DNA from: Escherichia phage p000y
Length of the DNA: 64,000 nucleotides
Sequence record: MK047718.1
Reading direction: 5' to 3' (one strand)
In this document: positions 3,278-42,361 of the stretch, piece after piece
Numbering within the stretch: the first letter of the stretch is position 1
Layout of the letters: every line of letters begins with the position of its first letter
Made by a program: the position numbers and the translations under genes
Notes under the pieces: model-generated
What the model saw: only the letters and a program-made list of their open reading frames with translations
What the model was told of the DNA's origin: nothing
The model's database searches: none

Positions 3278-3994
3278 ATGGGAAAACATAACACAATGAA
3301 ATATATCAAAGCCGCAGATTTTCAAACCGCATTTAAAGCAGTCAATCGTGAAATTTTAGAAAACCCGGAATTCGTAACTGATTCTCGTATTGGACGTTGT
3401 AATGAAATTGGGTCTATGACAGTAGTTGTTGACACTCCATCATCATTCAAAATGACCGACCCACGTATTAACCGCATCTCTTATGAATATGCCGAAGACT
3501 TCTGGAAGTTTATGATTTCTGGTGGTACCAACGCAGAAGAAGCGTTTAAGGCATATCCTAATGTCGCTAAATTTATTTCTAAACCAAAATCAGATGTTTT
3601 GCCGGCGAACTTCAACACTTTCTATGGTCCTCGCATTGCGGCCCAATTACCAACTCTTCTAAAAGAACTTAAAGAAAAACCTAACTCTCGAAGAGTTGTG
3701 TTCCAAATTCTAGAAAGTTCTGATCAGGCTTTGCTTGATTCGGACGAAACACTTGAATATCCATGTACTGACTCAGTAACTTATTATATTCGTGATGGTA
3801 AGCTTTATACCCACTGTCATATGCGTTCTCAGAACTGTGCTGTTGTTATGCAGTTGGATTTTTATCTCCAAGGAAAATTACTTCATTATATCGCTAACGA
3901 ATGCGGTGTAGAAGTTGGTGATTATACTCATACCATGGTAAGTGCCCATGTGTTTGAACGTGATTTTGATTATGTTAAAGGATTCCTTGACTAA
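3278..3994 (+). CDS. 42: Deoxypyrimidylate hydroxymethylase of the thymidylate-synthase family (gp42-like dCMP hydroxymethylase)
   Basis: PNSRR, PCTDSVTYYIRD (catalytic Cys) and MRSQN...QLD motifs align with T4 gp42 PDSRR, MCTNTVQYLIRD, MRSND...RND. Sits directly upstream of the uvsX block as in T4. Appears more diverged than neighbouring core genes. Confidence 0.75.
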   Translation: MGKHNTMKYIKAADFQTAFKAVNREILENPEFVTDSRIGRCNEIGSMTVVVDTPSSFKMTDPRINRISYEYAEDFWKFMISGGTNAEEAFKAYPNVAKFISKPKSDVLPANFNTFYGPRIAAQLPTLLKELKEKPNSRRVVFQILESSDQALLDSDETLEYPCTDSVTYYIRDGKLYTHCHMRSQNCAVVMQLDFYLQGKLLHYIANECGVEVGDYTHTMVSAHVFERDFDYVKGFLD

Positions 3995-37775: not shown

Positions 37776-38327
37776 TTACTTAAAGATATTTATAATCGCT
37801 TTGATAATAGATTTGTTTTCAAGGTCAGGGAATTTAGGGAATTCGCCGCCAAGATGTTCATGTTTTTCTAAAAGGGCAAAGAATTTTTTGAGCTCTTTAA
37901 ATTTTCGTTTTTCTTCTCTATTAGCAACCTCTGCGTCAATAAGAGAACTTAAAACACTGAATAATTTATAGAGTTCATGAATTTTCTTATCACGTTGAAC
38001 TACGCGTTTATATGCTTCATCTTCCTTCCACCCGTCGTCGGTCCAAATGTCAAATTCACCAGGTTCTTCCGTAGTAACATTTTGAAGAGCACCCGGAGTG
38101 TCAATAACAATTTTTTGCTTATCATAAGTCCATACTGTTTTTCCACGATGGTCTTCAACATATACCCATTCTTGTTCGTGTTCATCAAATAAAACAGCAT
38201 AGCCTTCTTTAGGGTCTAAAGGTTTTTTTGGTGTTGAATGAGCCGGAAATCCTACACCTTTTAATGGTTTATAATTTTCTTCTTTGTAAAATTCTTTAGT
38301 GTCAAAATAATAATGATAGAGTTTCAT
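37776..38327 (-). CDS. 38: gp38 tail fibre assembly chaperone (T4 type)
   Basis: MKLYHYYFDTKEFYKEENYKPLKG...DIWTDDGWKEDE...FALLEKHEHLGGEFP matches T4 gp38 as recalled; 183 aa. Confidence 0.85.
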   Translation of the reverse strand: MKLYHYYFDTKEFYKEENYKPLKGVGFPAHSTPKKPLDPKEGYAVLFDEHEQEWVYVEDHRGKTVWTYDKQKIVIDTPGALQNVTTEEPGEFDIWTDDGWKEDEAYKRVVQRDKKIHELYKLFSVLSSLIDAEVANREEKRKFKELKKFFALLEKHEHLGGEFPKFPDLENKSIIKAIINIFK

Positions 38328-38357
38328 ATTATAAAAAGGGACCGAAGTCCCTTCTCC
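38328..38357 (-). promoter_or_regulatory. Hairpin between an SD and the gene 38 start codon (split ribosome-binding site, or 37/38 terminator)
   Basis: - strand reads UAA(37 stop)GGAGAA-GGGACUUCGGUCCC-UUUUUAUAAU-AUG(38). Confidence 0.5.
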
Positions 38358-41300
38358 TTATGCTAAACGAACGATATAGTTAAAAGCAACGTTTTTAACT
38401 GTGTTTTCTGTATTTCCTGTGGCATTTACAGTTATTGTATGTCCATGGGAACCAATCGCTACCGAATGAGAGTGGGCACCAATACCTACAGTATGTGTAT
38501 GGGCACCAATACCTACAGTATGCGCGTGGTTACCTGTGGTACTTGTGGTTCCTGACCAAGAGTGTGTATGGTTACCTTCTGAAGAAGTTTTGGCCATATT
38601 CGACGATGCGGTAGCACCACTCACGGTTGCAGTGAATTTAGCGTTACCGTTTGGACCCGCACTATTGTATCCATCATAGAATACGCTAGTGGGTATGCCG
38701 CCTTGTACCTGAGGACCTGAGCGCGCATGTTGGTGGTTACCTGCAGCACTTGTAGTTCCACTCACCGTATGGTTATGGTTACCTGTGGTATTACTGGTCT
38801 TAGTACCATAATCAAAGCTTGAAGTCGTTTTGCTACCGTAATCAAAACTAGAAGTGGTCTTAGTACCCAAATCTGTGCTTGATGCACTTGCACTATGGCT
38901 ATGTGACTTAACACCGTCTGCTTCTGTACTCAATACAGCACGCCCAGATGGTTTACCCTTGATAGTTTGACCACGCATATCAGGCAGAGTGCCGGAAGGA
39001 TACACCGCAGCTAACTTAGGATACAAGTCAGCATCAAATGTTTGACCTTCCATTATGGCATAACCTTCAGGAGGTGTATCAGTAGGCCAAGGAATCGGAG
39101 CACCGATTGGGTAACTCGAGACAATATCCGTCTTAAGGTTATTTATTGTTGTATTCAAGTTAGCAAAATTACCAGAACCACCAGTGATATTACCATCAGT
39201 ACCAATACGAACATTACCAGCGCCTAATTTACCAGGAGAATAAAAATCACCGTTTTTATTAAATTCCCATCCAAGATCCTTTATAACAGCACCAGTAGAA
39301 ACGCCGTCACCACCTTCGTGATAATGAACTCTAAAGTTACCACCATTAATTAAAGTACCAATAGAATAGCAACTATTATTTTGAACGTATCTTTGTTTCA
39401 CAATAGGAACATAAGTGCTTGTATCTGTTCTATCAATATTCATATAGAACGGAGCACGAACGTTTTCATTATTTTGTGAAGCAAAAGAACCGGCTCCAGC
39501 AGGTCGTGCAGTATCAGTACATTCAGCGTCGATATATGCCGATTGTCCTAATTGCATACGGTAATTAGGAGAAATACGACTATTACTAGTGATAACAACA
39601 AGTTTATTATCATTATCGACCGTTACCATATTACCGCCAGCACCATCATCGCCTAATGTAACGGAATGGCGCATTTGTACCATACCGTTGTTAAGAGAAA
39701 CACTCAATGGGCGAAGGTTAGAAATACCACCACTTTCACCTGCATCTTTAAGTGTAGGTATAATATGCAAAGACGCTTCAGAACGACGGAAAATAGCTCC
39801 ATATTCAGCATTGTAAATACGGAAAGCATCTGCGGTATTACCGATTTTAACTTGACCGGTAATAGAACCACCGCCGGATAAAACAAGCCCGTTATCCATA
39901 GTAACTTGTCCGGATAATGTACTTAATCCATTAACTCTAAGACTTCCATCGGTGATAATGCTCCCTCTTGCATTCAGTTGTCCATTAATTTGTGTTACAA
40001 CAGGTCCCACAGTTTCTGAACCGGTTGGAGCTACGCGCTGAGAATAAAAATAATATCCCTGCCCGTCAGCTACTTCAAAAACTGTTTCACGAGTACGATC
40101 GCCGGATGCGTTAAATGAATTACCCCATGCTTTAACAGTTACGTAGCTTTTATTCTGCCCAGCACGAGTACCACCTTCCCACAAAATTTGCTTAGTGCCA
40201 TCAACTGTAGTAGTTGGAGCGAATGTTAGCCCAGCAGTAGAATTATTAGCTGCTAAATATACACCATTATATATTGAAAGCTGCTTAGTGGATGTAATAC
40301 CGCCATCAGCATAAAACATCACATTATTTGCACCGGTTACCAATTTCAAAATACCCGGGTTAATTTCCATACCTTGTTGGGTATTGATATTCATCTGACC
40401 TGTACCACGGAAATAATGGGAAAATTTACCGCCAGAATTATATCCGATGTGGGTTTGACCATCACCTGCATTGTTTGTATCAGCCTGGGTTTGAACCGAT
40501 AAAAGCGCGGCGTTGGTTCCAGGCATTGTCCAGGTTCCGCCTTGGTCTTCTGAGCGTCCAAATAATGCTTTACGAGTACTACGGAAACTATCAGGAGTAA
40601 TAGAAGCAACAGAATTCCAATTACCTACTAAATCATAAACGCCTTGCTTAATATATTTTAAACCAGTTGCAGCATCGCCCAAAGCAATATATCTTTCTCC
40701 CATTGGAGTAGGAGAGCCGTAGTTGTTAGTATTTTCGTCAGCAGTAATTGTGCCAATAGCAAGTGAACGACGTAATACCATTGCTCCATCATTACGAAGA
40801 CCCATTAATTTAGTAGTAAGTGTATTTCCGGTCCACCAAGAAATTTCATCATTCTTACCAGTTTGAGCTGAAGCGATTTCATGGTAAATGGTTCCACCTG
40901 ATTTAGCTCGAACTTTACGAAGATAGTTTATACCATTTTCTTCACCTGTTCCAGGATAAACATATTGAACTAATGACTGCGAATCGTATTGTCCAAATGC
41001 TTTTGTGTCTAAAACAATGGTTTTCGTATTAACTTGTGGAGCAGAAACTATACCATTAGCGGAGTTAATATTGCCTGACGCAGAAATATTACCTTTGCTG
41101 ACAAATAAATCACCAGTGTCAACTTGGAAATTACCATTACGATTAAAAGTCCAATATTTCGAATCCCCAGTTTCATCAATATAATGGAACTTAAAACTGC
41201 CTTCAGCAACCAATGTACCCGCTGAAAACGTACCATCTTTATAACGTTGCTTAATGAGTGGATGATATTCTGAAATAGAAGTAGTTGAACTTAAATCTGT

Positions 41301-41633
41301 AAAGATAGGAGCTTTATTTAGGTGTTGATTTGCCCACGCGCCATTACCAGCTGTTTTAGGTAAAAATTCAATATATTTTCCTGCATAAACAAACTGATTT
41401 CCATTGAGATTATATGTGCCGTTTTGTAAATAATCACCATTTTGAGTTACATTACCGTTAATATCCCCGCCCTTAGCAAAACCTAGGCTAATAATATTAC
41501 CGAGGTCATCTTTAGTAAAAAGAGTTCGATCTTTTAAGTTTATCGCTAATTCGCCTTCGGCTAATTGTGCTGCAGTAGGATTAACTCCTGCCACTTTGCT
41601 TCTTTTAAATTGTATCTGTTTTAATGTAGCCAT
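38358..41633 (-). CDS. 37: gp37 long tail fibre distal subunit (receptor binding)
   Basis: 1091 aa; C-terminal His-box repeats ([41 protein letters not shown]) like the iron-binding needle of T4 gp37; synteny 34-35-36-37-38. Confidence 0.9.
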
Positions 41634-42337: not shown

Positions 42338-42361
42338 AAAAATGGGAGACCGAAGTCTCCC
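42338..42361 (-). terminator. Hairpin terminator between 35 and 36 (- strand)
   Basis: On the - strand GGGAGAC-TTCG-GTCTCCC then AUUUUU, immediately upstream of the gene 36 late promoter. Confidence 0.55.

Follow-up and report, generated by a model that had tools for sequence, protein, structure and literature searches.

The long tail fibre of phage T4 ends in the C-terminal tip of gp37, for which a crystal structure (2XGF) covers a collar (domain D10) and a needle with its head (domain D11). Domain D10 takes in residues 1010-1026, so that the C-terminal strand returns into the collar (PMC6957217), and tip residues 932-963 have been genetically mapped to the binding of LPS and OmpC (PMC6957217, PMC5221442). 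T4-type C-terminal tips have been described as OmpC-targeting, and infection by the phage FelixPlatter (Bas40) is OmpC-dependent (PMC8594841). The tips of WFbE185, G53, and G2285 carry seven to nine HxH motifs, or His boxes (PMC6563267), and gp267 of CkP1 carries eight (PMC10175313). In the T2/T6/S16-type fibre, gp37 is capped by a separate gp38 adhesin, a protein of some 260 aa with glycine-rich motifs (PMC3157838). A further related system is the side fibre Stf of the siphovirus lambda, in which a tail-fibre assembly gene (Tfa) follows stf.

We compared these systems with the distal fibre of Escherichia phage p000y (record MK047718.1), a phage of STEC O157:H7, in a window of 64,000 nucleotides, the whole stretch of DNA analysed. 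Gene 37, the long tail fibre distal subunit, was found on the minus strand at 38358..41633 (1091 aa plus stop in the ORF list), and an exact-sequence look-up identified its product as AYN56621.1 (100% identical). The gene for gp36 lies upstream, and those for gp38 and the holin t lie downstream. The interval 38358-38940 on the minus strand encodes the C-terminus of gp37, from about aa 898 to aa 1091. Judged from its sequence, this interval specifies the receptor-binding tip of the long fibre, a member of the T4-gp37/lambda-Stf family. The initial annotation had reached the same call for gp37, which is upheld by the match to 2XGF, the Pfam Collar domain, and the T4-type gp38 downstream; its coordinates and its reading frame on the minus strand were correct, and all the motifs that it cited were found in the gp37 translation. 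Chance, low sequence complexity, and a gene on the opposite strand were each rejected as the source of these motifs; the plus-strand ORFs over gene 37 were 60-75 aa long and unsupported.

Layout of the tip and homology to the T4 needle

A phmmer search of the PDB with the C-terminal 300 aa of gp37 matched 2XGF with E=2.2e-89 (query 23-300, chain 2-242), and a tblastn comparison of the same query with T4 gave 60.5% identity over residues 2-300. The likeness proposed between the His-box array and the metal-binding T4 needle is thus one of homology, and the two tips are clearly not identical. Collar, both needle arms, and C-terminal strand are homologous, and the HxH positions are equivalent. Gaps in the alignment with 2XGF were confined to three places: p000y has one additional 10-aa unit of SFDYG type, one additional 9-aa unit of GIGAHxH type, and a different head (50 aa in p000y and 32 aa in T4), the sequences of which could not be aligned.

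The collar core (aa 844-891, 38961..39104, minus strand, as are all features of gene 37 below) was detected both in the 2XGF alignment and as a Pfam Collar hit (PF07484, E=3.3e-11) that passed the curated threshold. It corresponds to T4 domain D10 and directly precedes the needle. The outgoing, or ascending, arm (aa 911-969, 38727..38903) carries His boxes 1-3 (KSHSH, GNHNH, and GNHQH), whose T4 counterparts in the numbering of the 2XGF alignment are H883/885, H915/917, and H929/931; the numbering of the last pair agrees with that published (PMC6957217). The head (aa 970-1019, 38577..38726, 50 residues) was delimited by its position, equivalent to the T4 tip, and by its variability among relatives. 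The returning, or descending, arm (aa 1020-1067, 38433..38576) carries His boxes 4-8 (GNHTH, GNHAH, GAHTH, GAHSH, and GSHGH). It is followed by a C-terminal strand of 24 residues (38361..38432) that is near-invariant in the tip alignment. A conserved C-terminal stretch of 19 residues is present in p000y gp37 and ends 29 residues past the last HxH; of the 131 cluster representatives parsed, 127 had a 29-residue tail after the last HxH. An AlphaFold2 monomer model of aa 835-1091, built on a 23-sequence alignment, was poor (pLDDT 49.7, pTM 0.21), as expected of an intertwined trimer.

In total, eight HxH boxes were found in the p000y tip, at aa 911, 953, and 967 on the outgoing arm and at aa 1022, 1036, 1045, 1054, and 1063 on the returning arm. 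The array described initially is therefore real, but its list of seven had missed KSHSH at aa 911-913 (38895-38903). The three and five boxes flank the 50-aa head between aa 969 and 1020, which is free of histidine. All 16 histidines of aa 901-1091 belong to the eight motifs. A single HxH occurred in aa 1-900 of gp37, and at most one in every other ORF of at least 100 aa in the window.

Two families of repeat units in the arms

The tandem in-frame SFDYG repeat that had been reported for this interval exists as three 30-nt units, each encoding 10 aa (SSxDxGxKTx; 30 residues, 38793..38882), which form His-free layers of the outgoing arm. In order of translation, the units lie at 38853-38882, 38823-38852, and 38793-38822; T4 has two such units. 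At the DNA level the repeat is imperfect, with 19/30, 22/30, and 24/30 bases identical in the three pairs, and the adjacent units share 63-73% of their bases (19-22/30 nt) with diverged synonymous sites (3/8 shared codons). The repeat was not called by TRF, even at a minimum score of 30. It was nevertheless the top in-frame period-30 match of the whole of gene 37 (23/30, against a mean of 9.1 with sd 2.95).

The returning arm contains three tandem His-box units of 27 nt and 9 aa (GIGAHxHxV; 38433..38513), of which T4 has two. This repeat is stronger at the DNA level than the 30-nt repeat, and was called by TRF at 38445-38522 with 2.9 copies and a score of 93. Units 1 and 2 share 22 of 27 bases, and the first 14 nt are identical in the two GIGAH units. 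A repeat_region is annotated at the matching place in the records of phages mogra and moha.

Outside the T4-like phages, lambda Stf had an identical module layout: its C-terminus combines three SxDxGTKTT units with arms 56 and 41 aa long, eight HxH boxes, and the same C-terminal strand (61-65% identity over aa 48-300 of the 300-aa query). It differs from p000y in its 43-aa head (TSGLRMNSSGW...) and in an unrelated N-terminal fibre. Arms of 56/41 aa with eight boxes were also found in FelixPlatter, AndreasVesalius, slur03, VR7, CkP1, mogra, moha, and p000v. In WFbE185, the protein sequences of the two arms are those of p000y and the head allele is different. FelixPlatter has the same architecture with a different allele of the p000y head family. 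The p000y tip is an already known feature, in the common eight-site form found in lambda Stf and in most of the Mosigvirus and Tequatrovirus relatives compared, and it leaves the understanding of T4-type tail fibres unchallenged.

The two arms change length together

We carried out a census of 193 distinct complete tips, which are related sequences and so represent few independent length changes; 192 had a regular spacing of the returning arm. The length of the outgoing arm was predicted as 12 + 10k + 14b, where k counts the steps of 9 residues and b those of 14, with the returning arm as the only source for either value. The tip parser left out the first HxH gap when locating the head; this gap (three units, 42 aa) is longer than the head in VR7, SP18, CkP1, and two further tips (L010 and L011). 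The rule was exact in 184 of 192 tips and held within one residue in 189, while shuffled pairings of arms fitted it in 23% of cases on average and in 34% at most. This fit gives good support to the reading of the repeats as paired structural layers rather than free-running variable repeats. A true departure was seen in L002, with arms of 56/32 and an apparently intact gp37, gp38, and holin. Two other tips were not regarded as exceptions, namely P0282, which is truncated or frameshifted, and P0246, which has one outgoing HxH only.

It could be argued that unit numbers match between the arms through the shared ancestry of a few cassettes inherited whole, with no need for structural pairing. The census sequences are indeed related and fall mostly into four classes, entire tips are exchanged as units among phage genera and lambdoid prophages, and the mismatch in L002 occurs in an intact locus. 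We nevertheless consider this explanation unlikely. Ten (k,b) classes with 4 to 10 HxH boxes all obey the single linear rule, including rare long forms such as P0153, with five SFDYG-type units and five 9-residue steps, and P0270, with b=2. The T4 structure of Bartual 2010 is reported to have a hairpin needle geometry that needs arms of matched length. Three head families were each found on needles with seven and with eight boxes, and in every case the two arms both differed. On the published account of T4 (PMC6957217), too, a needle that folds as a hairpin requires such matching of the arms.

The initial annotation had instead proposed that the repeats are hotspots of length variation, lie in the receptor-binding part, and may mark host-range differences. 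Under this proposal they would be unstable and prone to slippage, with a copy number that shifts readily and alone alters host range. Several observations point in this direction: T4 carries two SFDYG-type and two nine-residue His-box units against three and three in p000y, two GIGAH units share the identical 14 nt noted above, L002 lacks exactly one His-box unit, and an assembly gap interrupts the tip region in the database record of O157 typing phage 13. Duplications in the T4 gp37 tip reportedly lead to host range expansion, as the title of a 1996 paper by Tetart et al. states.

However, three SFDYG units were present in 17 of 20 records of T4-like phages, from two genera with 80-96% DNA identity, including p000v, mogra, moha, JN02, WFbE185, FelixPlatter, slur03, VR7, and CkP1. 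Only T4, G2285, and BYEP01, with arms of 46/32, had two. In SP18, degenerate SFDYG units were found on an outgoing arm of about equal length (arms 55/41). Copy number differed only between discrete tip classes, in step with that of the returning-strand His-box units, and such coupling of the two arms, seen in 189 of 192 tips, is not expected from independent slippage. We therefore rejected a slippage-prone (contingency-type) coding repeat, given units that are 63-81% identical and a copy number that is constant in 17 of 20 records. The low similarity of adjacent SFDYG units, their diverged synonymous codons, and the absence of a TRF call for the 30-nt repeat likewise speak against instability. 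As to function, the repeats occupy the outgoing strand of the shaft and not the head, and it is in the 50-aa head that the candidate host-range differences fall. Thus, the proposal of hypervariable, host-range-determining repeats is quite improbable.

The head as a swappable cassette

Sequence variation among relatives was concentrated in the 50-aa head. We ran a three-way mosaic test on p000y, WFbE185, and mogra with 62 informative sites. The p000y sites sided with WFbE185 at aa 933-971 (15/15), with mogra at aa 976-1013 (14/14), and again with WFbE185 at aa 1019-1033 (16/16). The maximum chi-square of 35.3 was equalled in none of 1000 permutations, and the breakpoints, at aa 971/976 and 1013/1019, lie beside the flanking His boxes. 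The pattern shows an exchange of head cassettes among these three phages, any one of which could be the recombinant. The p000y head allele is that of p000v, moha, mogra, and vB_EQ1 (48-49 of 50 residues identical), and it shares 37 of 50 residues with the FelixPlatter head and differs at the other 13. We presume that aa 970-1019 are the receptor-binding surface and behave as a hypervariable cassette. By analogy with the T4-type tips, the receptor of p000y is probably OmpC and/or the LPS core.

A proposed metal-stapled needle

Metal binding, layer pairing, needle length, and receptor are here proposals, set beside the homology, motif layout, arm-length rule, and mosaic observed above. If p000y gp37 folds as its T4 homologue does in the crystal, three chains would form the collar, and each chain would run out along a thin needle and then back, so that the shaft has six strands. 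The metal ions, which are iron in T4, would lie on the three-fold axis, each held by six histidines, that is, one HxH box per chain; a homotrimer with octahedrally bound metal may be inferred for p000y from this analogy. The eight boxes would then correspond to eight metal sites, T4 having seven. At the turn, a loop of 50 residues would be the head that contacts the receptor and carries specificity, swapped between phages by recombination at the conserved flanking His boxes.

In the shaft, SSFDYGxKTT would be the His-free outgoing strand beside the returning strand GIGAHxHxV, one of each making one layer. With three such layers against two in T4, the p000y needle may be one layer, or about 3 nm, longer. 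This pairing of units is suggested by the coupling of their counts and by extrapolation of two published T4 contacts, G921-F970 and G964-H929 (PMC6957217). These contacts give i+j of about 1892; at this sum, His boxes 989-991 and 998-1000 face F902-D903-Y904 and T892-D893-L894.

It is extremely unlikely that the HxH array is mainly an iron carrier for siderophore mimicry and docking on iron-uptake receptors (a 'Ferrojan horse') rather than a structural staple: iron is the metal bound in the T4 needle (PMC6957217) and HxH counts are treated as iron-binding domains in marine phage fibres (PMC11705849), but the T4 ions are buried on the trimer axis, His-to-Ala changes abolish function, the known receptors for a tip of the p000y type are OmpC and LPS, and the window holds nothing that bears on iron uptake.

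Taken as a whole, we regard as highly probable the reading of a T4/lambda-type metal-stapled tip with paired layers, specificity in a swappable head, gp38 as a chaperone, and OmpC and/or LPS as receptor. Its value lies mainly in the correct annotation of the receptor-binding tip of p000y, which is a candidate for phage therapy of E. coli O157:H7. For engineering, head cassettes are exchangeable at the flanking His boxes, and any lengthening or shortening of the shaft should involve an SFDYG unit and a GIGAHxH unit, one of each, at once. A more speculative and rather doubtful extension is that needle length is quantised and selectable, with layers gained or lost as pairs only (4 to 10 metal sites), so that the p000y head, about 3 nm farther out than that of T4, would reach porins through thicker LPS or O-antigen. 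Here, the adaptive link of needle length to surface thickness is pure conjecture.

Gene 38 and the 37/38 intergenic region

Gene 38 (37776..38327, minus strand, 183 aa) matched the T4-type tail-fibre assembly chaperones (Pfam Caudo_TAP, PF02413). Its product is identical to AYN56620.1, and its alignment with T4 gp38 showed 66% identity across 179 aa (E=2e-90); in T4, too, the chaperone gene is found downstream of gene 37 and is followed by holin t. On this homology, p000y gp38 is a folding chaperone and neither an adhesin nor a fibre component. The T2/T6/S16-type fibre shares with p000y the gene positions 37, 38, and t and the role in primary receptor recognition. We rejected this adhesin type for p000y, since its gp38 is a 183-aa homologue of the T4 chaperone and its gp37 itself bears the needle and head.

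Between the two genes, a hairpin was found on the minus strand at 38333..38356, with the core GGGAC-UUCG-GUCCC and a fold of -15.7 kcal/mol (z=-3.25). It sits between an AAGGAG box, located at the stop codon of gene 37, and the AUG of gene 38. T4 has GGGGC-UUCG-GCCCC at the equivalent place, which differs from the p000y hairpin by one compensatory pair change. The hairpin of this intergenic region is labelled a putative terminator in the records of G2285 and WFbE185.

Gene context and identity of the gp37 tip

The gp37 tip occupies positions 38358-38940 on the minus strand, at the end of a 1091-aa open reading frame (38358..41633). By exact-sequence look-up, this protein is AYN56621.1, annotated as 'long-tail fiber protein' of Escherichia phage p000y, and the gene 38 product is AYN56620.1, also from p000y. 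The phage is a published T4-like myovirus that was isolated on E. coli and infects STEC O157:H7. DNA comparison of the window placed it in the genus Mosigvirus, with 95-97% identity to JN02, JS09, G53, and moha. A gp36 homologue lies upstream of gp37, and a 183-aa Caudo_TAP protein and holin T lie downstream, so that the gene order is 36-37-38-t as in T4-like phages. The gp38 protein shares 66% identity with the chaperone gp38 of T4, so p000y has the T4 arrangement, with the adhesin as part of gp37 itself. This differs from the arrangement in T2, T6, and S16, where gp38 is a separate adhesin (PMC3157838).

Compared with phage moha, gp37 was found to be mosaic over its full length. The first ~410 residues differ by one substitution, the middle (39140-40400, aa ~420-830) is strongly diverged with large gaps, and 89% identity is regained in the tip; the moha protein is 72 aa longer. 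The G+C content of the tip (38450-39200) is 44-50%, versus 33-40% in gp38, the holin, and elsewhere in the vicinity, which fits the long-held view that T4-type tips originate from lambdoid phages (PMC3157838).

The tip is a T4-like needle with eight HxH boxes

The last 300 residues of gp37 matched 2XGF, the crystal structure of the T4 gp37 receptor-binding tip, with E=2.2e-89. This homology bears out the initial annotation, which had recognised a T4-like metal-binding needle, the metal binding being predicted. All the motifs it quoted are present, and its His-box array is real, but there are eight HxH boxes rather than seven, the missed one being KSHSH at aa 911-913. All 16 histidines in the last 191 residues fall inside these boxes. 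Only one further HxH was found in the first 900 residues of gp37, and at most one in any other window ORF of at least 100 aa.

In T4, the tip is divided into a collar (D10; 811-881 and 1010-1026), a stem whose axis holds seven iron ions, and a tip subdomain (~932-959) whose residues determine LPS and OmpC binding (PMC6957217, PMC5221442). The alignment placed the T4 HxH boxes at 883/885, 915/917, 929/931, 966/968, 980/982, 989/991, and 998/1000, consistent with the residues H929, H931, G964, and F970 named in PMC6957217. It is unbroken apart from three places. Relative to T4, p000y has 10 more residues, making one extra SSFDYGxKTT unit, and 9 more, making one extra VGIGAHxHx unit; between His boxes 3 and 4 it has 50 aa versus 32 in T4, and these can hardly be aligned.

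Repeat units in the two arms

The needle comprises an outgoing arm (His boxes 1-3), a head (aa 970-1019), and a returning arm (His boxes 4-8). The outgoing arm contains three 10-aa SFDYG units, a degenerate one at aa 918 and two more at aa 928 and 938. Their DNA identity is 63-80% (19-22/30 nt for adjacent units), and TRF made no call for this 30-nt repeat. It is the top in-frame period-30 match of gene 37 (23/30, against a mean of 9.1 and sd of 2.95). Adjacent units use the same codon at just 3 of 7-8 identical residues; given this divergence in nucleotides and codons, the duplication is old. The stronger DNA repeat is a 27-nt unit encoding GIGAHxHxV in the returning arm (TRF score 93), which the mogra and moha records annotate as a repeat_region.

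Units 1 and 3 (38793-38882, minus strand) share 24/30 nt and the same codon at 7/7 shared residues; the middle unit has 3 of 7-8 codons in common with either. This pattern is a hint either of an origin other than plain stepwise duplication or of homogenisation between units 1 and 3. In KP869111.1 (E. coli O157 typing phage 13), a run of Ns lies in the outgoing arm between His boxes 2 and 3, where no gp37 CDS is annotated; the repeat-rich stretch is evidently a source of assembly trouble.

Arm lengths are coupled

We surveyed 20 T4-like phage records plus lambda, 31 IMG/VR loci, and 120 database proteins, taking arm length as the distance from first to last HxH within an arm. In p000y the outgoing arm spans 56 aa (3 HxH) and the returning arm 41 aa (5 HxH). 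The same 56/41 layout was found in lambda Stf, mogra, moha, p000v, JN02, phi25-307, WFbE185, FelixPlatter, AndreasVesalius, phage 212, SHSML-52-1, slur03, UGJNEcP2, vB_EQ1, VR7, and CkP1, and SP18 has 55/41. T4, G2285, and BYEP01 have a 46/32 form with 7 HxH. T4 is thus the shorter variant, and the p000y form is very common. Korf et al. reported 7-9 HxH in gp37 tips, those of WFbE185, G53, and G2285 among them, and inferred a T4-like needle; eight HxH and a predicted needle were described for CkP1.

We then searched 1.84 billion cluster representatives and pooled the matches with the earlier sets, giving 193 distinct complete tips. From just the numbers of 9-residue (k) and 14-residue (b) steps between His boxes of the returning arm, the length of the outgoing arm follows as 12 + 10k + 14b; the fit is exact for 184 of the 192 regularly spaced tips and within one residue for 189, versus a mean of 23% and a maximum of 34% for shuffled pairings. 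Ten (k,b) classes were found, spanning 4 to 10 HxH, with k=3, b=1 in p000y and k=2, b=1 in T4. The rule also holds for rare long forms, namely P0153, which combines 10 HxH with five SFDYG-type units and five 9-residue steps, and P0270, with b=2.

The T4 contacts G921-F970 and G964-H929 (PMC6957217) imply an antiparallel register of i+j ~1892. By extrapolation, His boxes 989-991 and 998-1000 would face F902-D903-Y904 and T892-D893-L894, respectively. One shaft layer probably consists of an SxDxGxKTT unit as the His-free outgoing strand and a GxGxHxH unit as the returning strand. Such pairing would give p000y one layer and one predicted metal site more than T4, and a needle longer by roughly 3 nm, taking a ~150 Å needle (PMC3004832) over ~50 outgoing residues.

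The only genuine exception among the 193 tips is a metagenomic IMG/VR locus (UViG_3300030021_000020, 3350-3873), which has three SFDYG-type units and one His-box unit fewer (56/32), with gp37, gp38, and holin intact. The mismatch may be compatible with a viable needle, result from a recent deletion, or be an artefact of assembly. The first 14 nt are identical in the two GIGAH units, making a deletion between them plausible.

Variation lies in the head

The SFDYG repeats had been proposed as length-variable host-range markers in the receptor-binding region. This did not hold, as their copy number is constant among phages with this tip type. Three head families (ARSGP..., SQTGPR..., and xSSG...FPNGYT...) are each found on 7-box as well as 8-box needles, and between the two needle forms of one family both arms always differ.

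Protein and DNA comparisons showed that the arms are conserved and the head is hypervariable. WFbE185 matches p000y exactly in the protein sequence of both arms and has a different, FelixPlatter-type head. The p000y-type head occurs in mogra, vB_EQ1, moha, and the sibling phage p000v (48-49/50 identical residues; 49/50 in p000v), with differences near the flanking His boxes. In a three-way comparison with 62 informative sites, p000y sides with WFbE185 at aa 933-971 (15 sites), with mogra at aa 976-1013 (14 sites), and again with WFbE185 at aa 1019-1033 (16 sites). The best two-breakpoint split (chi-square 35.3, equalled in 0 of 1000 permutations) places the breakpoints directly after His box 3 (aa 965-969) and directly before His box 4 (aa 1020-1024). 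The term 'His box', and the view of the boxes as recombination points, reportedly go back to Tetart et al. in 1996 and 1998. The breakpoints match the exchanges in or near conserved adhesin motifs found by Krisch's group, as summarised in PMC3157838. The tip feature, its fold, the HxH variability, and the p000y gp37 protein itself are all already public; the coupling of arm lengths and the clear-cut mosaic of head cassettes neatly illustrate known principles and are not discoveries.

FelixPlatter (Bas40) is OmpC-dependent, and T4-type C-terminal tips were described as OmpC-targeting in the BASEL paper. As the FelixPlatter head is identical to that of p000y at 37/50 residues, our best guess, purely by analogy, is that p000y would use OmpC, perhaps together with the LPS core as in T4.

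Hairpins at the tail-fibre locus

In the stretch from the gene 37 stop codon to the AUG of gene 38 (38325-38365, minus strand), an AAGGAG box is followed by a GGGAC-UUCG-GUCCC hairpin (-15.7 kcal/mol, z=-3.25) and a U-run. T4 has GGGGC-UUCG-GCCCC at the same site, with one compensatory pair change. T4 gene 38 is a classic example in which a hairpin spans the distance from a remote Shine-Dalgarno box to the start codon; other records label the hairpin at this site a terminator. At 42344-42361 (minus strand), just upstream of gene 36 and after gene 35, GGGAGAC-TTCG-GTCTCC forms a perfect hairpin with a T-run, in the same UUCG-loop style.
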